Assembly (NCBI GenBank): GCA_030266405.1
Contig: JAJDHW010000001.1
Span: forward strand, 1 to 50,857
Length of the DNA: 50,857 bases
Reading direction: 5' to 3'
Source of the DNA: Methanobrevibacter sp. OttesenSCG-928-I08
GTDB lineage: Archaea; Methanobacteriota; Methanobacteria; Methanobacteriales; Methanobacteriaceae
Under the pieces are notes generated by a model. It saw only the letters and a list, made by a program, of their open reading frames with translations. It was not told where the DNA came from and did no database searches. This document shows, piece after piece, positions 2,883 to 38,785 of the stretch. Within the stretch, counting starts at the first letter, position 1; each line of letters opens with the position of its first letter. A program made the position numbers and the translations under genes.

Positions 2883-5431
2883 TGACATCAATTAGTGAGA
2901 TTTTATCAAAATATAATACTTCTTTAGAGGGACTTTCAACAATTGAAGTTGAAAAAAGAAGAGAAGAATATGGAGATAATGAACTTAAAGAAGAAAAGAA
3001 AAAAAGTCCAATTGTGTTATTTTTAATGCAATTTGTAGATATTTTAATAATTTTACTTATTATTGCAGCTATTGCAGCATATTTTGTTGGTGATTTAATA
3101 GATGCTATTGTAATTTTAATTGTAGTAACAATAAATGCAGTAGTTGGATTTGTTCAAGAATATCGTGCAGAAAAAGCTATGGAAAAACTTAAAAGTTTAG
3201 TATCTACAGAAGCTGTTGTAAAAAGGAATGGTGAACTTGTTAAAGTACCTGGAAATGAATTAACTGTTGGAGATATTGTTGCAATAGAAGAAGGAGATAA
3301 AATTCCTGCAGATTTATTATTAATAGAAGTAAATGAGTTAAGAGTTGATGAATCTGCATTAACTGGTGAATCTCGACCAGTTAGTAAAAATATAGATTAT
3401 GAAAATGTTGGTTTAAATGATGTAAATAAATCAAATCCTCCTGAAGAATTAAAGTCAAAAATAGCATATATGGATTCCGCTGTTGTATCTGGTCGTGGAG
3501 TAGGTGTTGTTGTTGCAATTGGAATGGAAACATCTATTGGAAAAATAGCTGAAATGATTCAAGGAGAAGATACAGAAACACCTTTACAGATAAAAGTAAA
3601 TTCATTAGGGAAAACATTAGGATTAATAGCTGTTATTGTTTGTGTAGCAGTATTTATATTAGAATTTCAAAGAGGTGTTCCTCTTGTTGAAACATTTATG
3701 ACTGCAGTTTCACTTGCTGTTGCAGCAGTTCCAGAAGGACTTCCTGCAGTTTTAACTTTAACATTAGCTTTAGGTATGCAACAAATGGCTAAATCTAATG
3801 CAATTGTTAGAAAATTACTAGCTGTTGAAACTTTAGGTTCATGTAGTGTTGTATGTACTGATAAAACAGGAACATTAACAAAAAATAAAATGACTGTAAG
3901 AGAAGATGAATTAATTAATAAAGAAAAAGCTTTAACAGTATGTGGTTTATGTACTAATTCATCAATTAAAGATGGAAAAGAAATTGGAGATCCAACTGAT
4001 GTAGCTATTATGGTATTTGGAGAAAATAATGGATACATCAAATCAGATTTAGAAAAAAAATATCCTCGTATAAAAGAAATTCCATTAGATAGTACAAGAA
4101 AAAGAATGACTACAATCCATCAAAATGAATCTGAATTATTATGTATTACAAAAGGAGCTCCTGAAATTTTACTTGATATGTGTAAATATGTTGATAATGA
4201 AGGAAATATTCAAGTAATTGATGATGCAATTAAGAAAAATATTGAAAATAAAATCAAATCAATGACTAACTCTGCTTTAAGAGTTATTGGACTTGCATAT
4301 AAAAATATGGATCCAACTGACAATATAGATGATTTAAATCCAGAAGATATTGAAAAAGATTTAACATTTGTTGGAATGGTTGGAATGATTGACCCTCCAC
4401 GTCAAGAAGCTAAAATAGCTGTTGAAGACTGTAAAAAAGCTGGAATAAAAGTTATAATGATTACTGGAGATCATCAAGAAACAGCTGCAGCTATTGGGCG
4501 AGAAATTGGAATATTAACAAATGGTAAAGTCATAACTGGAGAAGAATTAGAAAGTTTAACTGAAGAAGAGTATTTAAAAATAGTTGATGATATTCAAATT
4601 TATGCAAGAGTATATCCTGAACAGAAAATGCGTATTGTTCAAACATTACAAGATCAAGGAAATATTGTTTCAATGACTGGAGATGGTGTAAATGATGCCC
4701 CTGCTCTTAAAAAAGCTTCAATAGGAGTTGCTATGGGAAGTGGAACAGACGTAGCTAAAGAATCTTCAGACATGGTAATTCAAGATGATAATTTTGCAAC
4801 AATAATAAAAGCTATTGCAGAAGGACGTAAAATATTTGATAATATTAAAAGATTTGTAAAATTCCAAGTATCTACTAATGTTGGAGCTATTTTAACTATA
4901 GTTGGAGCTTCTTTAATAAGTTTACCTATACCATTTAATCCAATCCAAATTCTTTGGATAAATATTATAATGGATGGTCCTCCAGCACAATCTTTAGGAA
5001 TGGAAGGTCCTGAAGATAATCTTATGACTAGAAAACCTGAAAATGGAGATATTTTAAATAAGAATATATTAACTAAAATAGTTGTAGCTGGAATAGTTAT
5101 GGCAGTTGGAACACTTGCAGTATTTGTTTATAAATTAAATACAGCAAATGAAATTGAAGCTATGAGTGTTGCATTTACTTTATTTGTTGTATATCAGCTA
5201 TTTAATGCATATAATAATAGATCCCAATCAAAAGTTAAAAATAAATTCTTTAGTATTTCAATAGCTGCATCATTTATATTACAGTTATTTGTCCTTTATA
5301 TACCATACTTACAAGGAATATTTAGAACAACTGGAATTGGTATATATGATTGGATCTTAATATTTGTTGTTGCATTAACAATATTAGTATCTGAGAGAAT
5401 AATGAATAAATTATTACCTCAAAACACATAA
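2882..5431 (+). CDS. P-type IIA (Ca2+-type) cation-transporting ATPase
   Basis: DESALTGES, PEGL, DKTGT phosphorylation site, KGAPE, TGD and GDGVNDAPAL motifs. Confidence 0.95.
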   Translation: MTSISEILSKYNTSLEGLSTIEVEKRREEYGDNELKEEKKKSPIVLFLMQFVDILIILLIIAAIAAYFVGDLIDAIVILIVVTINAVVGFVQEYRAEKAMEKLKSLVSTEAVVKRNGELVKVPGNELTVGDIVAIEEGDKIPADLLLIEVNELRVDESALTGESRPVSKNIDYENVGLNDVNKSNPPEELKSKIAYMDSAVVSGRGVGVVVAIGMETSIGKIAEMIQGEDTETPLQIKVNSLGKTLGLIAVIVCVAVFILEFQRGVPLVETFMTAVSLAVAAVPEGLPAVLTLTLALGMQQMAKSNAIVRKLLAVETLGSCSVVCTDKTGTLTKNKMTVREDELINKEKALTVCGLCTNSSIKDGKEIGDPTDVAIMVFGENNGYIKSDLEKKYPRIKEIPLDSTRKRMTTIHQNESELLCITKGAPEILLDMCKYVDNEGNIQVIDDAIKKNIENKIKSMTNSALRVIGLAYKNMDPTDNIDDLNPEDIEKDLTFVGMVGMIDPPRQEAKIAVEDCKKAGIKVIMITGDHQETAAAIGREIGILTNGKVITGEELESLTEEEYLKIVDDIQIYARVYPEQKMRIVQTLQDQGNIVSMTGDGVNDAPALKKASIGVAMGSGTDVAKESSDMVIQDDNFATIIKAIAEGRKIFDNIKRFVKFQVSTNVGAILTIVGASLISLPIPFNPIQILWINIIMDGPPAQSLGMEGPEDNLMTRKPENGDILNKNILTKIVVAGIVMAVGTLAVFVYKLNTANEIEAMSVAFTLFVVYQLFNAYNNRSQSKVKNKFFSISIAASFILQLFVLYIPYLQGIFRTTGIGIYDWILIFVVALTILVSERIMNKLLPQNT

Positions 5432-28037: not shown

Positions 28038-31000
28038 ATGAAATATCAAAAGATAGTTCAAACAGGAATATTTTTAATGATATTACTGTTTTCAATAAAC
28101 TTAGTATCTGCAGAAGGAGACTTCTCAACACTAGAAGAAAAAATAAATAACGAACAAACTAACGAAGTAAATTTAGAAGAAAATTACACTTATAATAAAA
28201 GCACCGACAATAAATTTTACCATGGTGTGAGCATATATAGAAGTAATTTTACAATAAACGGAAATGGCTTTACAATTAATGCAAATAATGAATCACGAAT
28301 ATTTAAAATACGTGGAGAGAACATAACAATCAAAAACCTAAACTTTATAAATGGAAATCATTATGAAGGAGGAGCAATCTACAACAAAGAAACTAATGGT
28401 TTAACAATAATCAATTGTGTATTTGCCAATAATACAGGAAGAGATGGAGGAGCAATACTTAACCATAACAGTAATATTGTGATAAATAACAGCATATTCA
28501 ACAACAACACAGCCAAAGAAGGAGGAGCAATACAGAACTATTTATACAATAATTTTAAAGGAAATAACAACATATTCACCAACAACAATGCAAAAAAAGG
28601 AGGAGCAATCAGTGATCTTTTAACTACAAGTTTTACAATGACTAACAGTACATTCACCAACAACACAGCAATAGAAGGAGGAGCTGTTAAATGTCTTTTA
28701 ACTAATAATTATACTGTAATCAATTGTATATTTAGAAATAATAATGTAAGTACAACTGGTGGAGCAATTTTAAGTACTGCATCAACTAATATAACATTAA
28801 TTCATTGTATATTCACCAACAACACTGCAAATGAAAAAGGCGGAGCAATCGATAAACATTTATGTATGGATTTCATAATAACTAACAACACATTTACCAA
28901 CAACAATGCAAAGAAAAATGGTGGAGCAATCAACAGTGATAATGGAGGTTATAATTTCACAATAACTAACAGCACATTCACAAACAACAAAGCAATAGAA
29001 TATGGTGGAGCAATCAACAATGATTTAGGATCTCAAAACTTAACAATAAACAATTGTACATTCACAAACAACAAAGCAAATGAAGGTGGAGCAATCAATA
29101 ATAAAGATGGAGGCTACTATTTAATAATAAATAACAGCACATTCACCAACAACAAAGCAGGAGAAAATGGAGGAGCAATCAATAATAACCACGGTGGTTA
29201 TTACTTAATAATAACTAACAGTATATTTATCAAAAATACTGCAACTAAAAAAGGTGGAGGAATATACAATAGCAATTCTAAATATATCATAATAAATGAC
29301 AGTTCATTCACAAGTAATAATGCAACATATGGTGGAGCAATCCATATAACTGAAATGTTTACTGATAATTTTACAATAAACAACTGTACCTTTAACAATA
29401 ACATTGCAATTGAAGATGGTGGAGCAATAGTAAGTTATTGTCTTAATTTTTTAATAAGCAAATCTACATTTATTAACAACCAAGCAGATGAAGGTGGAGC
29501 AATATATATTGCATTAAGTAATAGTAAAATAAGTAATAATAATTTCAACAACAACGAAGCAAATTATGGTGGAGCAATATATGCACTAACAAACTATGAA
29601 ACAAAAATAACTAGTAATGCATTTGAAGACAATTATGCAAAAGAAGGTGGAGCAATATACAACATCAAAAGTAATGAAACAAACATAGATAATAATGAAT
29701 TCACTGAAAACCATGCAGACTACGGAGGAGCAATATATTCTCTCAAAAACAATGAAACACTAATAACTATTAATAATTTTACTAATAACCATGCAAAATA
29801 CGGTGGGGCAATATACAACATCAAAAACAATAAAACAGACATAGATAATAATGAATTCACTGAAAATGAAGCAAAATTTGGTGGAGCAATATACAACATC
29901 AAAAGTAATGAAACAACAATAAACAACAACAAATTCACTGAAAACAAAGCAGCCTACGGAGGATCATTATATAGTATTTATAATAACAATTCTAAAATAG
30001 ACAATAATCAATTTAGTAAAAACACTGCAATTCATGAAGGCGGTGCAATTTATGAATTAAATAATGTAAATTACACCATATACAATAACACATTCATAGA
30101 AAACAATGCAAATGAAACAGGTGGAGCAATTGCAAACTATAATACTATCAATCTAAAAATAAATAATAGTACTTTCATTAAAAATCATGCAAAAGAAGGT
30201 GAGGCAATTTTCAATGTGAAAAGTGATTCTATAATCAGTCAAAGTAGCTTCATGAGTAACACCACAAATGAGAATATTATTTATAATAATGGAAAATATG
30301 AAATTTTAAGCATAATTGATTGTATTTTTAAATCATCTAATGAAAAAATTTTAATTTATAATGAAGGTAATTTATTTTTAGAACAAAATAAGATGATTAG
30401 TGATAATCCTGAGAAAATCTATAATAATGGAACTATTACAAGTAATATGACTTTAACTATTTTAAATAATGAAACAATTTACTCAGCATGCGGTAGTAAT
30501 GTCAATTTAACTGCAGTTATAACTGATGATAATGGAAATATAATAGTAGGTCAAAATATTACATTAAATGTTAATCAAATTGGCGAATTCATATTATCTA
30601 ACTATTATAAAGGAATTTATAATTATTTAATTGTAATTAATCAAAAAGGAATATTTCCAGTTACAGGATCATATGAGGGTGGAAGAACTATAGTTAAAAT
30701 AGGAATATTAGATAGTACAAAAAAGAATCCTATTTTTACAATTGAAAGTAAAAACACTGTCTATGGAGAAAACCAAACAATCATAATCACATTCGAAAAC
30801 GACGAAACAGGAAACGTAACAATAGGTAGTAAAACAGTCAACATAATCAATGGAAAAGCAACATTCGACAACCTAGGACTAAACGCCGGGACCCATACAC
30901 TAACAATAACATACAACGGAGATGAAAACTACAACAAACTAGAAAAACAATACACAATCACAATAAACAAAACAAACACCAACTTCACCATAAAAACAGA

Positions 31001-32504
31001 AAACATGATTTATGGAGAAAACCAAACAATCACAATATATTTCAAAGGTAACGAAACAGGAAACGTAACAATAGGTAGCAAAACAGTAAACATAATAAAT
31101 GGAAAAGCAACATTCAACAACCTAGGACTAAACGCTGGAACACAGACACTAACAATAACATACAACGGAGATGAAAACTACAACAAACTAGAAAAACAAT
31201 ACACAATCACAATAAACAAAACAAACACCAACTTCACCATAAAAACAGAAAACATGATTTATGGAGAAAACCAAACAATCACAATATATTTCGAAGGTAA
31301 CGAAACAGGAAACATAACAATAAACAGCAAAACAGCACAAATAATCAATGGAAAAGCAACAATTTCTAATTTAGAATTATCTAGTGGACACCATGATTTA
31401 TTAATTTCATACAGTGGAGATAAAAACTTTAATGGACTTGAAAAAAGTCAAAATATTTTTGTTGATAAAGCTGATGTTTTTTTAATTGGAGAAAATATTA
31501 GCATATTTTATAAAAGTGGAGAAGAATACATTGTTACTTTAAAAGATAAACATGGAAATATTTTAAAAAATATGACTGTTTATTTAACTGTTAATAATAT
31601 AACTTATAAAAAAGCTACAAATGATAAAGGTGAAGCTTGTTTATGTATTAATCTAAATCCAGGAAATTATATAGTATTTGTTAATTTTAATGAATCTGAA
31701 AATTATAATGAAGCTAAAACTAATAACACAATTGAAGTTTTAAGTAGAATCATAGGTAATGATATTGAAAAATATTATAAAAATGGCACACATTATTATG
31801 TAAAGCTATTAGATGAAAATGGAAAGCCATTAACTAATGTTACTGTATGTATAAATATCAATGGTAGATGTTATTATAAAACAACTAACAATACTGGAAT
31901 AGCTAAATTAAACATTAATTTAAATCCAGGAAATTATGAACTAAGTGTTTCACACCCAATTACAAATGAAACTATAACTAATTTAGTTTCTGTTTATTCT
32001 ACAATTAATGCAAGTGATTTAACTAAATATTATTGTAATGATTCGCAATACTATGTGAAATTATTAGATAATCTAGGTAATCCTTTAAATAATAGTATTG
32101 TTACTATGAATGTTAATGGAAAATTCTATAATAAATCAACAAACAATGAAGGAATAGCTAAATTAGATATAAAATTAAATCCTGGAGAATATAAATTAAC
32201 TGTTTCACATCCAATTAATGGTGAGAGATTAACAAATATCATTAAAGTTTTACCAACAGTCATAGGGCATGATGTAACTATGAATAAAGGAGAAAATAAA
32301 ACATATGATATAGAAGTATTTGATTGTGAAGGAAATCCTTTTGCTAATCAAACTGTTATTATAAACATACATGGAATCTTTTATAACAAGACTACTAAAT
32401 CAGATGGAAAAGTTAAATTAAATATTACTCTCGATTCAGGAAGTTATATTGCAACAGCAACATCTAATGGATATTCAACTTCAAATATAATAAGAGTTTT
32501 ATAA
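28038..32504 (+). CDS. Adhesin-like protein (GGAI beta-helix repeats plus Ig-like domains)
   Basis: Signal peptide ending VSA; many FxNNxAxxGGAI repeats; YNGDENYN Ig-like repeats; C-terminal INLNPGxY repeats; AGGAG RBS. Confidence 0.92.
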   Translation: MKYQKIVQTGIFLMILLFSINLVSAEGDFSTLEEKINNEQTNEVNLEENYTYNKSTDNKFYHGVSIYRSNFTINGNGFTINANNESRIFKIRGENITIKNLNFINGNHYEGGAIYNKETNGLTIINCVFANNTGRDGGAILNHNSNIVINNSIFNNNTAKEGGAIQNYLYNNFKGNNNIFTNNNAKKGGAISDLLTTSFTMTNSTFTNNTAIEGGAVKCLLTNNYTVINCIFRNNNVSTTGGAILSTASTNITLIHCIFTNNTANEKGGAIDKHLCMDFIITNNTFTNNNAKKNGGAINSDNGGYNFTITNSTFTNNKAIEYGGAINNDLGSQNLTINNCTFTNNKANEGGAINNKDGGYYLIINNSTFTNNKAGENGGAINNNHGGYYLIITNSIFIKNTATKKGGGIYNSNSKYIIINDSSFTSNNATYGGAIHITEMFTDNFTINNCTFNNNIAIEDGGAIVSYCLNFLISKSTFINNQADEGGAIYIALSNSKISNNNFNNNEANYGGAIYALTNYETKITSNAFEDNYAKEGGAIYNIKSNETNIDNNEFTENHADYGGAIYSLKNNETLITINNFTNNHAKYGGAIYNIKNNKTDIDNNEFTENEAKFGGAIYNIKSNETTINNNKFTENKAAYGGSLYSIYNNNSKIDNNQFSKNTAIHEGGAIYELNNVNYTIYNNTFIENNANETGGAIANYNTINLKINNSTFIKNHAKEGEAIFNVKSDSIISQSSFMSNTTNENIIYNNGKYEILSIIDCIFKSSNEKILIYNEGNLFLEQNKMISDNPEKIYNNGTITSNMTLTILNNETIYSACGSNVNLTAVITDDNGNIIVGQNITLNVNQIGEFILSNYYKGIYNYLIVINQKGIFPVTGSYEGGRTIVKIGILDSTKKNPIFTIESKNTVYGENQTIIITFENDETGNVTIGSKTVNIINGKATFDNLGLNAGTHTLTITYNGDENYNKLEKQYTITINKTNTNFTIKTENMIYGENQTITIYFKGNETGNVTIGSKTVNIINGKATFNNLGLNAGTQTLTITYNGDENYNKLEKQYTITINKTNTNFTIKTENMIYGENQTITIYFEGNETGNITINSKTAQIINGKATISNLELSSGHHDLLISYSGDKNFNGLEKSQNIFVDKADVFLIGENISIFYKSGEEYIVTLKDKHGNILKNMTVYLTVNNITYKKATNDKGEACLCINLNPGNYIVFVNFNESENYNEAKTNNTIEVLSRIIGNDIEKYYKNGTHYYVKLLDENGKPLTNVTVCININGRCYYKTTNNTGIAKLNINLNPGNYELSVSHPITNETITNLVSVYSTINASDLTKYYCNDSQYYVKLLDNLGNPLNNSIVTMNVNGKFYNKSTNNEGIAKLDIKLNPGEYKLTVSHPINGERLTNIIKVLPTVIGHDVTMNKGENKTYDIEVFDCEGNPFANQTVIINIHGIFYNKTTKSDGKVKLNITLDSGSYIATATSNGYSTSNIIRVL
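30762..31360 (+). repeat. 249-bp (83-aa) near-identical tandem duplication of an Ig-like domain
   Basis: TATGGAGAAAACCAAACAATC at 30762, 31011 and 31260. Confidence 0.92.
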
Positions 32505-33188: not shown

Positions 33189-33898
33189 ATGAAAAATAAT
33201 CATAACATTATAAAAAATCTAATTAAATCATTAGAAAATTCATCTGAAGAAAAAAGATTAGAATACGGACTTAAATCCTATCCAAGTAAACTTAAAATAA
33301 TTGGCGTTAATTCTAAAAATCAAGACCTTATTTTAAAAGATATGAAAATAGAAACAAAAGATTATAATGTTGATGATAAAATTGAATTTACAAAAGAGCT
33401 AGTTTCAACAGATATTTTTGAAGTTCATAGAATAGCTTATAAGTATTTAGGTTCTTATAAAAATGTTTTAGATAAATTAACAATTGAGGATATTGAATTT
33501 TTAGGTCAAAATCTTGATAATTGGGTTTTAGTAGATTATATTCTATAAATATTATTGGATATTGCCTAAGAGAAGGAAAAATAGATCTTGAATTTGTTAA
33601 AGATTATTTTAAATCTAGTAATGTTTGGATACGTAGAATTCCACTTTCAGCAACAATAGCTCTTAATCAAAAAGCTAATGGTGGAAAAGGAGATCCTAAA
33701 AGAACTTTAGAAATATGTGCCTTGGCAGTTAATGATTATGAAGCTATGATAAGTAAAGCTCTTTCTTGGGCACTTAGAGAACTTGTAAAAGTAGATAAAG
33801 ATTCTGTTGTGAAGTTTATAAATAGCTATGAAAAAGAATTAGATAAAAAAGTATTAAGAGAAGTTAGAAAAAAGATTGAAACTGGGAAGAAAATTTAA
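33189..33898 (+). pseudogene. Frameshifted DNA alkylation repair enzyme (AlkD-like HEAT repeat)
   Basis: ORFs 33189-33548 and 33521-33898 join into one protein (LDNWVLVD.. / YSINIIG..VWIRR..KALSWALRE); frameshift near 33536-33545. Confidence 0.75.
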
Positions 33899-34695: not shown

Positions 34696-35610
34696 ATGAC
34701 ACTTTCTCACGATGCACGAAAAAAACTAGAGTATAGTGGATATAGATTTGTAGGAGATTATAAACATTCTGCTGTTAAAATCTGCCATTGGACAAGACAA
34801 AGCCTTTTAGATAAAGGAGTTTGTTATAAGGAAAAGTTTTATGGAATTGAAAGTCATAGATGTCTTCAAATGTCACCAGCTGTTCCATTTTGTCAGCAAA
34901 AATGTGAATTTTGTTGGAGAGATTTCTCAAATAGTCAATCCAAATGGTCTGGTGAATATGATGAACCTGGAATTATTATAGATGAAGCTATTGAAGCTCA
35001 AAATAAATTATTATGTGGATTTTTTGGTAATGATAATGCAAATAAAGATAAATTATTAGAATCTAAAACCCCAACAAATGCAGCTATTTCACTAGCAGGC
35101 GAACCTACATTATACCCTGAAATTAGTCAGTTGATTCAGGAATTTAAAAAAAGAAATTTTACAACATTTCTTGTAAGTAATGGTCAGTTTGTTGAAAAAT
35201 TAAAAAACCTAGAAACAGAACCATACCAACTATACCTATCCTTAGACGCACCTGACAAAAAAACATATGATGAATTATGCAACCCACAAATAAAAGATGG
35301 TTGGAACAATTTAAATGAATCACTAGAAACACTAAGTAGTTTTCAAAGTAGAACATGTATAAGAGTAACCACAGTTAAAGGCAAAAACATGATAAATCCT
35401 AAAGAGTATGGAAAATTAATTGAAAAAGCAGATCCTAACTTTGTAGAGATAAAAGCTTACATGTGTGTAGGCTCATCAAGAGATAGATTAACACTCGATA
35501 ACATGCCAACATTCGATGAAGTAGTTGATTTTGCAACAAAAATAGGAGAAGAATGCGGAAGAGAAATAGTAAATGACTCTGAAATAAGTCGAGTAGTACT
35601 TCTAGAATAA
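34696..35610 (+). CDS. taw1: 4-demethylwyosine synthase (radical SAM, TYW1/Taw1)
   Basis: KICHWT, CYKEKFYGIESHRCLQM, CQQKCEFCWR, AISLAGEPTLYP, EIKAYM. Confidence 0.95.
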   Translation: MTLSHDARKKLEYSGYRFVGDYKHSAVKICHWTRQSLLDKGVCYKEKFYGIESHRCLQMSPAVPFCQQKCEFCWRDFSNSQSKWSGEYDEPGIIIDEAIEAQNKLLCGFFGNDNANKDKLLESKTPTNAAISLAGEPTLYPEISQLIQEFKKRNFTTFLVSNGQFVEKLKNLETEPYQLYLSLDAPDKKTYDELCNPQIKDGWNNLNESLETLSSFQSRTCIRVTTVKGKNMINPKEYGKLIEKADPNFVEIKAYMCVGSSRDRLTLDNMPTFDEVVDFATKIGEECGREIVNDSEISRVVLLE

Positions 35611-35619
35611 TTTTCTAAA

Positions 35620-35657
35620 TTTTAGAGGTGAAAGTGAAAAAATTTATTAATAAAATT
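35620..35657 (+). repeat. 38-bp direct repeat, left copy (also inverted relative to 35782-35808)
   Basis: TTTTAGAGGTGAAAGTGAAAAAATTTATTAATAAAATT; 36/38 identical to 37562-37599. Confidence 0.85.
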
Positions 35658-35686
35658 TATATATTATTAAAAATATATAATAACTT

Positions 35687-35785
35687 GTAATAGTTAAGGG
35701 GAATTAGCCCCTTAATCTATTTGAACTGTTTGAGTATTTCAAGTGCTAACTTTATGATACTCAACAGTTCTAACAAGTTTTTTTT
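35687..35785 (+). ncRNA. Putative cis-antisense RNA (antitoxin candidate); ends are approximate
   Basis: TTTATATA box at 35656-35663 upstream; two hairpins (35694-35715 and 35723-35770); T8 tract at 35778-35785; antisense to most of the small ORF. Confidence 0.4.
35694..35715. terminator. Perfect 8-bp hairpin TTAAGGGG/CCCCTTAA
   Basis: Lies immediately after the TAG of the minus-strand peptide ORF. Confidence 0.6.
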
Positions 35786-35800
35786 ATTAATTTTTTTCAC
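35717..35800 (-). CDS. 27-aa amphipathic peptide (type I toxin candidate) MKKINKKNLLELLSIIKLALEILKQFK
   Basis: Hand translation; GGAGGTGA RBS overlaps the GTG at 35800 (ATT at 35791 is better spaced); TAG at 35717-35719; own TATA box upstream. Confidence 0.6.
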   Translation of the reverse strand: MKKINKKNLLELLSIIKLALEILKQFK

Positions 35801-35854
35801 CTCCAAAACGGAAGCAATATATCTGCCCCCTAAGGATTAATTTATATTTAATAT

Positions 35855-35870
35855 CATATAAATCTTTATT
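35855..35870 (-). promoter_or_regulatory. Putative BRE/TATA promoter of the small-peptide transcript
   Basis: Minus strand AATAAAGA-TTTATATG, about 25 nt upstream of the GGGGGCAG 5' hairpin. Confidence 0.5.
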
Positions 35871-36089
35871 TTATTAATTAAATAGCTTAAAATAGATAAA
35901 AAACACAATATTTAATTATAATTACAATATTTTCATTTTAAATCAATGAAAAAGAATTATTAAAAAAAATATTTATTTATAATATATAGGGAAAAATCGG
36001 AAATATCTCTAAATAATTTATATTGTTTTAATTTAATAATTTTCTAAGAAAGAACATTGTTAAAAATGGAAAAATAAAAAAAGAAGTAA

Positions 36090-36233
36090 TTATAAATAAT
36101 TTGGTTCAAATCTATCACAAGAAAAAGTGTCACCTGTTTCTTCACCTGTTAGAGTACATCCGTTCTCCCATCGACCGCCCCTGTAATAATCATCTACTAA
36201 ACCATAGTGTTTACAATCTTTACAAAAACCCAT
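36090..36233 (-). CDS. 47-aa four-cysteine microprotein MGFCKDCKHYGLVDDYYRGGRWENGCTLTGEETGDTFSCDRFEPNYL
   Basis: Hand translation; AGTGA RBS-like sequence, GC-elevated coding patch in AT-rich DNA, CxxC...C...C pattern, T-tract right after the stop. Confidence 0.7.
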   Translation of the reverse strand: MGFCKDCKHYGLVDDYYRGGRWENGCTLTGEETGDTFSCDRFEPNYL

Positions 36234-36363
36234 AATAAATCACTAATATATTATCTGTTTTTTAGATTATTTATATTTATCAATTCACAATAATAACTAG
36301 TAAAAATGATTTTGAAATAAATCATGTTGTTTAACTAAAATAAAATGATTTTCTAAAAATATT

Positions 36364-37494
36364 TTATTCAATCAGTTCAAAATCATGTTTTTCAAACTCA
36401 TTTCCATTAATTATTATGGAAATCTTATGTAGTCCAAGATGGAACTTCCTTGTTGTTATTAACTTAAAAGATTGTTTTCTATTAATCAATGTTACTGAAT
36501 TTTCTTTATATTCTTTTTCACTAATTTTATAAACTTTCTTTGATAATGTTCCATTTGCTTTTTGATAATAAATTGCATATTCCAGTCGTATTTTGCTTTT
36601 TTCATCAATATTATTCAATAATTTAAAATTAAATTCTAATGATTCTCCAATTTTAACTTTAGGAGTTGATATATGAAAATCCTCTATTTTAATATTTTCT
36701 ATAGATCCAAAACCAAATAATTCCATCACTTCACTATTACCTTGTTTTAATAGTGTTCTACAACCATGTTTAATAATCCAATCAGTATTTTTTGATTCTC
36801 CTTTCCATTTTTTTACTAAATCAATGACTATTTTAGGATTATCTTTTACTATATCATTTAAATTATTTGCAACACTTTTTCTTACAGATTCTGAAGGATC
36901 ATTTTTTAGATTTTCTAAAATTGGAATTATAGAAGATGGATTTTCCTTTAAGTTAGGTAATGCCATATGCCATGGAAGTCTTGGACGGCAACCTTCTGAT
37001 GAAACTCGTCTTACAGCCCAATTTTCATGTTTAGACCAAATCAACATTTGTTTCATCATTTCATCAGGATATTTTAAGATAAAAGGTCGAACTGCTCCTT
37101 CACAACTTGTAAATTGCGTGATTTCTTCTATGGTTTCAATAGATGTTTCATAATCATCTAATCCATAGTCTCCAACATATCCTCCTAAAAATCCATATTC
37201 TAATGATAAACCAAATCCTGTATCCTGTACTTTTGACCAATATGGAGTTTCTTTTAGATAATTTATTAATTCAATGATATTATCTGTTGCAGTTTTATAA
37301 TCTGAAGGTAAAATATTTTTTAATGTTGTAGAGAGGTGTCTTCCTCTGTCTACTATTCCTTTATTTTCCCATTTATCATCCATAATTTGAGATAAAAATA
37401 ATTGTTCATCAAAATCCCCAATTACATTTTTTAGAGCTTTTGTATATTCATTGAAAAATTCTTCATTAAAAATGTTTTTAAAAGGTTCTCCCAT
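36364..37494 (-). CDS. DNA alkylation repair protein (AlkC-like HEAT repeat with C-terminal Ig-like domain)
   Basis: FTSCEGAVRPF, VRRVSSEGCRPRLPW, VRKSVANNLND..KDNP, LEYAIYYQKANG, TTRKFHLG. Confidence 0.85.
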   Translation of the reverse strand: MGEPFKNIFNEEFFNEYTKALKNVIGDFDEQLFLSQIMDDKWENKGIVDRGRHLSTTLKNILPSDYKTATDNIIELINYLKETPYWSKVQDTGFGLSLEYGFLGGYVGDYGLDDYETSIETIEEITQFTSCEGAVRPFILKYPDEMMKQMLIWSKHENWAVRRVSSEGCRPRLPWHMALPNLKENPSSIIPILENLKNDPSESVRKSVANNLNDIVKDNPKIVIDLVKKWKGESKNTDWIIKHGCRTLLKQGNSEVMELFGFGSIENIKIEDFHISTPKVKIGESLEFNFKLLNNIDEKSKIRLEYAIYYQKANGTLSKKVYKISEKEYKENSVTLINRKQSFKLITTRKFHLGLHKISIIINGNEFEKHDFELIE

Positions 37495-37561
37495 GTTTTC
37501 ACCAGTTAATAATGTATTTTTTTATCCAGACTCTTTAAATTAAATTAATTGATGTTGAAAG

Positions 37562-37599
37562 TTTTAGAGATGAAATTGAAAAAATTTATTAATAAAATT
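37562..37599 (+). repeat. 38-bp direct repeat, right copy
   Basis: TTTTAGAGATGAAATTGAAAAAATTTATTAATAAAATT; 2 mismatches to 35620-35657. Confidence 0.85.
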
Positions 37600-37629
37600 C
37601 ATAATTGTTATTAAAAATAAAATAAATTA

Positions 37630-37666
37630 TAAAAAAAATAGTAAATAGCTCTGAAATTATCAGAGC
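37630..37666 (-). terminator. Terminator of the korDABC-sucC operon
   Basis: GCTCTGA/TCAGAGC hairpin at 37648-37666 followed on the minus strand by T8. Confidence 0.55.
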
Positions 37667-37678
37667 AAGATTATTTAA

Positions 37679-38785
37679 TTATTTTAAAGAATTACAAATT
37701 TCTACAGCCTTTTTAGCAGCCTTTTCCATTGATATATCATATGGAATTCCAGCTTCTTCAAGTAGCCTTTGTCCTTCTTCTTCATTAGTTCCTGTTAAAC
37801 GAATGACAATATTGACTTTTCTTTTAGATTTTTCTAAAACTTTAATAATTCCTCTTGCAACATCATCTGCACGAGTAATTCCACCTAAAACATTTAAAAA
37901 GACTACTTTTACAGGAGGATAGTTTAAAACTATATTAAGAGCTTTTTTAATAGTATTTTCAGAAGCTCCACCACCAATATCTAAAAATGTAGCAGGTTTC
38001 CCTCCATTAAGTTTTATCATATCCATACCAGTTAAAGTTAAACCCGCACCATTACCAATAACAGCAATATCTCCATCAAGTTTTACAAAATCTAATTCTT
38101 TCTTTTTAAAGGAGTTTAGTTCTACTAAATCTGGATGTCTAAATAAAGAATCATTTTCAATTTCAAGTTTTGCATCAGCTGCAATTAAACCTTCATCAGT
38201 TAAAGCTAATGGATTTATCTCAGCAGTTTCTGCATCATATTTATTAAATACATTAAATAGTTTCCAAATTATTGTTCCAACTGGAGAAATCAAATCAGAA
38301 GATACACCCATTTTACGAGCAATTTCACGAGCTTCATAAGGTAAAAATTCTTCTAAAGGATTTGGATAATATTTTATAATTTTTTCAGGATTTGTAATAG
38401 CTAAGTTTTCTATTTCAACTCCACCTTCGCGGCTAGCTATTATAACTGGTTTTTTCTCGTTACGATCTATAGAAACACTTACAAAAAACTCTTGTAAAAT
38501 ATTTGCTTTTTTCTCAACAAGTAAATGTTTTACTTTTTCCCCTTTAATATCCATATCAAGTAATTCTTCAGCTATTGAAAAAGCTTCTCCAGGATCATCT
38601 GCAAATTTAATTCCACCAGCTTTACCTCTTCCTCCAATTAAAACTTGGGATTTAAGTACTACTGGTTCATCCATTTCTGATGTAATTTCCATAGCTTCAC
38701 TTGGTGAGTAGGCAACATGGCCTTCTAAAATAGCTATTCCTTCTTTTTTAAAGATTTTTTTTGCATTGTGTTCAAAAAACTTCAT
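37679..38785 (-). CDS. sucC: Succinyl-CoA synthetase beta subunit
   Basis: GGRGKAGGIK, EINPL, GNGAGL, FLDIGGG, RLTGTN. Confidence 0.96.
   Translation of the reverse strand: MKFFEHNAKKIFKKEGIAILEGHVAYSPSEAMEITSEMDEPVVLKSQVLIGGRGKAGGIKFADDPGEAFSIAEELLDMDIKGEKVKHLLVEKKANILQEFFVSVSIDRNEKKPVIIASREGGVEIENLAITNPEKIIKYYPNPLEEFLPYEAREIARKMGVSSDLISPVGTIIWKLFNVFNKYDAETAEINPLALTDEGLIAADAKLEIENDSLFRHPDLVELNSFKKKELDFVKLDGDIAVIGNGAGLTLTGMDMIKLNGGKPATFLDIGGGASENTIKKALNIVLNYPPVKVVFLNVLGGITRADDVARGIIKVLEKSKRKVNIVIRLTGTNEEEGQRLLEEAGIPYDISMEKAAKKAVEICNSLK

Follow-up and report, generated by a model that had tools for sequence, protein, structure and literature searches.

A candidate type I toxin-antitoxin family in methanogenic archaea and their viruses

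Introduction

Whether archaea possess toxin-antitoxin (TA) systems of type I is a question raised by a short intergenic region in the 50,857-nucleotide stretch of Methanobrevibacter DNA analysed here (the window), where a candidate module is flanked by a radical-SAM wyosine gene (34696-35610, plus strand) and a DNA-alkylation-repair family gene (36364-37494, minus strand). A preliminary description of this region had proposed a 27-residue amphipathic peptide on the minus strand, controlled by a cis-antisense RNA from the plus strand, and, according to a preprint of June 2026, archaea have no known type I system. Sequence comparison identifies a real, undescribed family that would work like a kind known in bacteria, with no match to any named family, and we put the probability that it is an archaeal type I TA family at about 0.7. 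A literature search that covered mainly freely accessible papers found no description of the family.

The window locus

On the minus strand, a predicted TATA box (TTTATATG, 35855-35862), whose putative promoter function would set the start of the peptide mRNA at about 35831, is followed by a 5' hairpin (35810-35830), a full-length Shine-Dalgarno (SD) sequence (GGAGGTGA, 35797-35804) and an open reading frame (ORF, 35717-35791) for an amphipathic peptide of 24 residues, which is predicted to begin with AUU at 35791-35789, ends in TAG and contains a long stem (35725-35772). Past the stop codon lie a GC-rich hairpin (35694-35715), which is present on both strands and would also come first of the hairpins in the predicted antisense RNA, and a 3' anti-SD element (35619-35633). 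On the plus strand, a convergent promoter motif (35650-35663), made up of an A-rich BRE-like run and TTTATATA at 35656-35663, may drive a cis-antisense RNA predicted to span 35687-35790. The preliminary description had placed both TATA boxes, the 5' hairpin and the SD correctly; the 3' anti-SD element, which closes the long-range fold, had been overlooked.

The SD sequence GGAGGTGA occurs once in the window, where 0.46 occurrences are expected by chance, and TTATATA is carried, on one strand or the other, by 19% of the regions upstream of genes and by 27% of 22 convergent intergenic regions. With a host genome of 27% G+C, single motifs are weak evidence, and the case therefore rests on comparison. 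What stands above chance is the fold (z −9.6, equalled by none of 200 shuffles) together with the whole arrangement, which is kept across diverged copies. A promoter matrix learned from the genome strayed off the TATA motif and was uninformative, and the many short DNA matches to other places were discarded as AT-rich promoter look-alikes.

The module sits in a mobile context. In G001, a genome of the same genus, the site is empty: the wyosine gene abuts sucC and the window insert is absent, so the module and the repair gene together form an insert of about 2 kb in the window. Its boundaries are marked by the 3' end of the module, repeated over 81 nt: on the far side lies a decayed second copy of that end (37552-37632), which is 78% identical to 35610-35690 and has lost the TATA. 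Elsewhere in the window, a second DNA-alkylation-repair gene (33189-33898) is split into two overlapping ORFs of 119 and 125 residues, each corresponding to half of PF08713, and a repeat-rich adhesin-like ORF of 1,488 residues lies at 28038-32504.

Copies, distribution and decay

Listing the GGAGGTGA sites in the window's own genome (G000) brought up paralogues directly, and profile searches gave 13 full copies in three genomes: six in G000, six in G002 (of the same genus) and one in G008, the last added by the peptide profile. The copies of G000 are that of the window, one on contig C75, two on C119 that lie 390 bp apart and two on C53, thus including two tandem pairs, with a further fragment on C95; G002 has a fragment besides its six copies, three of which form a tandem array with a 380-bp unit. 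Paralogous copies with conserved amphipathicity, which the preliminary description had suggested looking for, are thus present.

An RNA model built from the 13 copies led to distant members in G078 and G089 and to decayed copies on contigs C120 of G008 and C28 of G001, and a second RNA model matched seven of 150 genomes of the archaeal family, a patchy presence. The peptide profile matched 17 of 314 genomes at E ≤ 0.05. Six of these were kept (G000, G001, G002, G008, G062 and G078); the other 11 were dropped as chance matches, nine of them after inspection, with an RNA-model match never better than E 0.88. A core pattern found nine stretches in genome contigs, of which four, all bacterial, were chance matches within other genes, and seven stretches in metagenome contigs, none of them a homologue. 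The cultured carriers of the window family include Methanobrevibacter sp. DSM 116169 and M. cuticularis DSM 11139. None of 353 pattern matches from the alignment search of viral contigs was confirmed, and tblastn of phage records and a search of plasmid records gave no new homologue.

Decay takes a recurrent form. Three decayed copies (G000:C53b, G008:C120 and G062:C5) have lost the SD or the promoter and/or acquired a premature stop and have kept the reverse TATA; a fourth, G001:C28, has lost both ends. At G062:C5:36599-36761 (L109/L148), an intact ORF without forward promoter or SD is fused behind a viral-protease-like gene fragment.

Database searches placed the family nowhere. Rfam 15 gave three weak matches in 35400-36500, all far under their cut-offs; no Pfam or NCBIfam family was found at E ≤ 1 for any of the 11 members tested, short queries of this kind having limited power; PHROGs had no match for the window peptide; and in the PDB it matched designed helical repeat proteins and no natural protein. 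No Pfam or NCBIfam model of a named bacterial toxin family (Hok, AapA, Fst/Ldr, SprA1, TxpA, YonT, TisB or Ibs) was matched; these databases presumably hold a model for each family named, that for YonT having been seen here.

The peptide reading frame

The preliminary description had read the ORF as 27 residues from 35800 to 35717. The open frame ending at 35717 stands, and its start does not: the GTG (35800-35798) lies inside the SD site (35804-35797) and shares the frame of the conserved ORF in only five of the 13 copies, for which reasons AUU is favoured. In all 13, a codon of the form ATH or ATG (ATT in eight, ATA in two, ATC in two, ATG in one) lies 9-15 nt past the first G of the SD and opens the conserved frame, and the single ATG stands in the same alignment column as the ATT of the window. 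On this comparison, translation most probably begins with the AUU at 35791 and yields 24 residues. Initiation at a TTG in codon 5-6 was rejected, as that codon is present in five of 13 copies and lies too far from the SD.

AUU/AUA initiation may therefore operate in this lineage, as the comparison of copies suggests. One independent clear ATT start was found in G000, in a frame of 1,522 codons on C66 whose first ATG, GTG or TTG comes 131 codons in; the other strong-SD starts of that genome are mostly ATG (105), TTG (16) and GTG (11). As a separate observation, large signal-peptide proteins (G000:C66, L026:374 and L027:1383) appear to start with ATT or CTG after a full SD, which suggests non-AUG initiation in adhesin-like genes of the host's archaeal family.

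The ORF is under purifying selection, its unpaired codons included. Across codons 6-23, pN is 0.23 and pS 0.71 (pN/pS 0.32), and the unpaired loop codons 13-18 give 0.27 and 0.85 (pN/pS 0.31); codons 2-5 are not conserved (pN/pS 1.44), and the five other frames range from 0.53 to 3.58. All 12 intact copies keep an open frame; the thirteenth (C53b), with its premature stop, also has a degenerate SD, all other copies having one of GGAGG type. Stop codons interchange among TAA, TAG and TGA. Codon 19, which is ATA in all 12 intact copies, is fixed at the nucleotide level by the stem. An antisense ORF of 39 residues (35721-35840) was rejected for lack of an SD and for the higher pN/pS of all reverse frames, and a leader-peptide attenuator was rejected because the downstream genes differ and are often convergent.

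The peptides of the family, of 23-28 residues, have the properties of the short (<70 residues) hydrophobic helical proteins of type I systems, for which a membrane location is predicted. The amphipathic helix pattern already seen in the window recurs in all 12 intact copies, with a best helical angle of 104-106 degrees, muH of 0.42-0.60 (shuffle p 0.0008-0.06) and a polar strip K14-E18-K21-E/Q22; net charge varies from −1 to +4. The pattern had been likened to that of phenol-soluble modulins and delta-toxin, peptides with a dedicated export and quorum-sensing context; no homology to them was found, there being no Pfam or natural PDB match and no conserved exporter beside the copies.

Fold of the predicted mRNA and sequestration of the SD

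The region 35833-35612 folds at −70.2 kcal/mol (z −9.6), and the MFE and centroid structures nearly agree. After the 5' hairpin, the RNA forms a long rod in which 35619-35633 pairs with the SD, through a 13-bp helix found in both structures, and 35644-35653 pairs with the start codon; the stem within the ORF, the GC-rich hairpin and a small palindrome of A and T lie inside this rod. The same shape was obtained for all 13 copies (z −7.8 to −16.6, 40 shuffles each), with 3' ends that were the analysts' choice.

In the alignment, 91% of cells are paired, compared with 39-49% for slid controls, and 22 of 42 consensus pairs have changed on both sides, values reached by none of 500 shuffles in a control that is inflated by the relatedness of the sequences. 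For example, both-side changes occur in six of the eight consensus pairs of the 5' hairpin, which is found in MFE and centroid structures alike, and the ORF stem has 14 consensus pairs, 95% of cells paired and compensatory changes in seven pairs. The SD helix itself contributes four scored pairs, one of them with a change on both sides. Only two pairs of the GC hairpin were scored because MAFFT aligned it poorly; it is found in each of the 13 individual folds, with variable loops.

The preliminary description had pointed out this hairpin, perfect in the window, directly after the stop codon. The hairpin is there, and it is probably not the mRNA end, since the longer RNA folds into the covarying rod; modelling suggests that the mRNA likely passes it and ends near 35617, at about 215 nt. 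A run of at least four U follows the anti-SD in 11 of the 13 copies, that of the window not among them.

These models predict that the SD is sequestered in the primary mRNA of all 13 window-family copies. In every one of them the SD has an unpaired probability of 0-0.32 in the complete RNA, which rises to 0.48-0.98 with the loss of 20 nt (0.00 and 0.57 respectively in the window copy); with deeper 3' trimming some copies refold over the SD, for example the G008 copy at 0.16-0.29. Cognate duplexes of SD and 3' end average −14.4 kcal/mol versus −11.9 kcal/mol for non-cognate ones (permutation p 3e-4), with the cognate partner ranked first in one of 13 rows. Such arrangements have been described in bacteria: the 250-nt aapA1 mRNA is reported as inert until 25-30 nt are cut from its 3' end (PMC5416894), and SD occlusion is named as a feature by which T1TAdb recognises toxin mRNAs (PMC8594479). 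Bacterial type I toxins are described as being held back by occlusion of the SD over a long distance, by a start codon other than AUG and by an SD that is too perfect, each a brake in its own right (PMC8167048, PMC5416894), and all three features coincide in the window family, where 12 of 13 copies are non-AUG by comparison.

The convergent motif and the predicted antisense RNA

At the plus-strand TATA box the mRNA strand reads TATATAA, a motif that is invariant in all 13 copies; on the mRNA, the reverse TATA is also one arm of the small AT palindrome, whose other arm has three invariant positions. In the distant members G078 and G089 that other arm is lost and the TATA is kept. A BRE-TATA motif, defined after the family was seen and scored on copies that are kin, is present on the antisense strand of 14 of 14 members versus 1.6 expected from shuffles, and on the sense strand of four of 14. 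This conservation suggests that the convergent motif may act as a promoter.

An antisense RNA starting near 35687 would be about 100 nt long if it ended in the T-rich tract and up to about 145 nt with read-through, and is predicted to form a two-hairpin fold (z −5.6 and −5.1). The T8 tract (35778-35785) from which the preliminary description had drawn its terminator is present in the window and is not conserved: an 8-nt run occurs there in two of 13 copies, and a run of at least five near the start in eight of 13.

Related modules on viruses and proviruses

The G008 copy lies on C88, a 44,161-bp contig with a terminase gene, whose right end carries the module, flanked on one side by two genes of a Panacea-domain pair and on the other by DUF2080. 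This contig (L080-L082) is tailed-provirus-like, and a Panacea/SocA antitoxin-like gene and a partner without Pfam match adjoin the module. A viral contig of IMG/VR shares a pattern match of the same type; with a relaxed pattern, seven of 19 IMG/VR stretches matched the RNA model (E about 1e-7 to 3e-8), one of them being 100% identical to the virus MSTV1. MSTV1 itself (PP537965.1) contains two modules, alike in plan to that of the window but with different peptides, one at 2981-3151 (minus strand) in an unannotated gap between ORF5 and ORF6, the other unannotated, at about 37960-38160 and directly after the pseudomurein endo-isopeptidase gene, and vir080 contains another.

An independent test chose loci by forward promoter and SD alone, blind to the features in question. 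It picked 28 viral stretches and 13 places in ten of 314 family genomes, its reversed control picking none. These 41 loci reduce to 19 distinct ORFs, 18 of which encode hydrophobic peptides of 23-32 residues (one after frame correction) and one a product of 120 residues. By the analysts' rule, the 18 short ORFs start with ATT or ATA in 15 cases, ATG in two and TTG in one. The antisense promoter motif is present in 13 of these 18 virus-type modules versus 1.05 expected, and on the sense strand in none. The MSTV1-type module is without the SD lock (SD unpaired 0.64-0.87). Its sequence link to the window family is weak (E roughly 0.0016 with the first RNA model), and a shared descent of the two is likely.

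In most virus-type modules the reverse TATA is followed by another small ORF, which is hydrophobic and has an SD of its own. These second ORFs, of about 44-55 residues, include L150:2829-2972 (minus) and L317:3166-3299 (plus), both unannotated in MSTV1, and L094:1257-1421, and are possible second toxins. Two further observations concern the wider viral set. A promoter of the form GAAA-NN-TTTATATA-N-TA ... TATARTA marks methanogen-virus modules (L276-L316) and precedes an unrelated gene of the virus Drs3 too. Viral contigs whose promoters look bacterial show a similar plan of GGAGGTG, short amphipathic ORF, hairpin, reverse −10-like motif and second small ORF, the amphipathic peptide having 45 residues in L153 and L155 and 35 in L191, L196 and L211; L153 matches phrog_31530, of unknown function.

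The MSTV1 provirus was lost from none of 73 colonies, a stability attributed to a HEPN system in the paper that describes it, and 14 public transcriptomes of the host, M. smithii PS, exist (PMC11375127). The terms 'antisense' and 'small RNA' do not occur in the text of the MSTV1 paper, nor does 'antisense' in six supplements.

Ribonucleases of the host

RNase III (PF00636) scored over its cut-off in five of five carriers tested and in 116 of 136 genomes of the archaeal family, compared with none of 14 genomes from the order's two other families and none of 12 in genus g3; in the control set, eight of 14 were positive, all of them bacteria. The RNase III domain is of bacterial type, lies at C81:6372-6644 in G000 and comes close to being universal within the archaeal family. 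All five carriers also encode two subunits of RNase PH.

A proposed mechanism and its alternatives

The reading as a type I system has strong comparative support from multicopy and tandem loci, selection on the peptide, the convergent motif, the SD lock, the non-AUG start, the provirus and RNase III; it is the reading of the preliminary description with the start codon, the 3' end of the mRNA and the T8 terminator changed. An mRNA of about 215 nt, started near 35831, would read through the GC hairpin and stop just past the anti-SD. Its predicted, covarying rod would lay the 3' end over the SD and start codon, and the primary transcript would therefore be stable and silent. The SD would become accessible once about 20 nt or more had been trimmed from the 3' end, with the archaeal exosome as one candidate for this step, while the AUU start and full-length SD may damp translation further. 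The antisense RNA of about 100-145 nt would pair with the open form and hand the duplex to host RNase III for cleavage; loss of the antisense RNA, as when a provirus disappears or the cell is stressed, would leave the peptide free to insert into the membrane and depolarise it, and such damage could make for addiction. The chromosomal copies are likely derived from simpler modules on methanogen viruses.

In its fullest form, the proposal is that this is the first archaeal type I TA family, with AUU/AUA-initiated membrane-peptide toxins and convergent antisense RNAs, spread by viruses among gut methanogens, helping to keep proviruses such as MSTV1 and using the RNase III of the host family, and that in one lineage the modules acquired a 3' lock like that of hok and aapA and grew in number on the chromosome. 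We consider that the whole of this account has slightly better than an even chance of being correct.

The alternative that survives best, and which we regard as unlikely, is a small membrane protein, comparable to sP24/asRNA94 of Methanosarcina mazei, that lacks toxicity, is controlled by an antisense RNA and adjusts a membrane complex or the response to stress. Pairs of this sort exist in a methanogen, where growth in salt stress is reported to benefit from them (bioRxiv 10.1101/2025.10.28.685009), and this reading accounts equally well for purifying selection and for an antisense promoter. However, three stacked translation brakes and tandem duplication are expected of a harmful product, and the patchy presence (seven of 150 genomes), the provirus accessory regions and decay through lost expression signals likewise form the pattern of a harmful product.

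The second small hydrophobic ORF of the virus-type modules, with its own SD past the reverse TATA, brings in a different possibility, that of a virus-derived two-gene membrane operon, antisense-controlled, for superinfection exclusion or lysis timing, of which the chromosomal copies would be domesticated antiviral remnants. One MSTV1 module does stand directly after the pseudomurein endo-isopeptidase gene, and second ORFs gave weak holin PHROG matches, but these (E 0.24 and 0.44) are not significant and the window family has no second ORF. Two ORFs with one antisense RNA are, moreover, the plan of the bacterial type I system yonT-yoyJ/SR6, as it is described in PMC5848175, so the two-ORF plan is compatible with the type I reading, and we regard the operon as very unlikely.

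A structured non-coding repeat, either a selfish palindromic element or a small RNA, whose ORF is a by-product of an AT-rich stem, might be suspected from the near-palindromic rod, the codons fixed by the stem (codon 19, ATA in 12 of 12), the absence of a start ATG in 12 of 13 copies and the lack of an Rfam match. Against this, the pN/pS of 0.31 and pS of 0.85 come from loop codons that are unpaired, the stops interchange, and 18 different virus-type ORFs, whose stems differ as well, all specify short peptides of hydrophobic character when read in the frame that the SD dictates, which makes a purely non-coding element highly improbable.

That the product is an amphipathic peptide released from the cell, be it a modulin-like surfactant, an archaeocin or a signal, and not a toxin acting inside it, as its helix pattern and the several sequence variants per genome might suggest, is barely credible for a peptide with no leader, with no conserved transporter, protease or immunity gene beside its copies, with translation predicted to be locked, not high, and with a net charge that varies from −1 to +4.

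Comparison with known systems

The preferred type I reading finds its closest parallels in aapA/IsoA of Helicobacter pylori and hok/Sok, which as described in PMC5416894 share a short ORF, an mRNA of about 200-250 nt whose 3' end locks translation through pairing over a long distance (predicted for the present family), an SD freed by removal of 20-30 nt, a cis-antisense RNA (again predicted here), RNase III and several paralogous loci. The antisense RNA of aapA1 binds the initial 76 nt of its mRNA (PMC5416894), whereas that of the window would begin past the stop codon and extend over the ORF. The family also stands apart from aapA and hok in its TATA/BRE promoters of archaeal type, in its predicted AUU start and in the absence of a sequence match. 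In its convergent layout, with the predicted antisense RNA on the 3' side, it instead resembles Fst/RNAII, TxpA/RatA, YonT/SR6, SprA1, SprG/SprF and also BsrE/G/H as catalogued in PMC8594479, and its prophage location is that reported for Gram-positive type I systems (PMC8167048). The second small membrane ORF downstream in the virus-type modules recalls yonT-yoyJ (PMC5848175). Unlike the Gram-positive systems, the archaeal peptides match no family model; the sole YonT signal came from L196, one of the bacterial look-alikes, at E 0.11 and 12.6 bits compared with a cut-off of 45.

TisB and DinQ of Escherichia coli have a helix of similar size with a narrow polar strip of alternating charges, but differ in their trans-placed antitoxins and LexA control according to PMC8309996, and no homology to them was detected. 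The tandem intergenic copies missed by annotation have a counterpart in ldr/rdl and ibs/sib (PMC2887945), from which the family differs in host and in the absence of a sequence match.

Among archaea, spRNA24/asRNA94 of M. mazei combines a small membrane protein with a cis-antisense RNA, the arrangement predicted for the present family; it is set apart here on the strength of its description as M. mazei-specific and beneficial under salt stress (bioRxiv 10.1101/2025.10.28.685009). In the archaeal virus SSV1, a291/T3E comprises an antisense RNA to a putative viral toxin, possibly type I-like, but A291 is a large protein and not a short hydrophobic peptide, and the link is called speculation by its authors (bioRxiv 10.64898/2026.06.17.732947).

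Implications

The family provides concrete candidates for archaeal type I TA systems, two of which lie where the annotation of MSTV1 has gaps, this virus being in culture and having as its host the methanogen that dominates in the human gut. The haloarchaeal CreTA system, with its RNA toxin, we take to be of a different kind. The family also hints that archaea regularly begin translation at AUU or AUA as a means of slowing it, that RNase III may have a task to perform in methanogens, and that a naturally occurring peptide may affect the membranes of these organisms.
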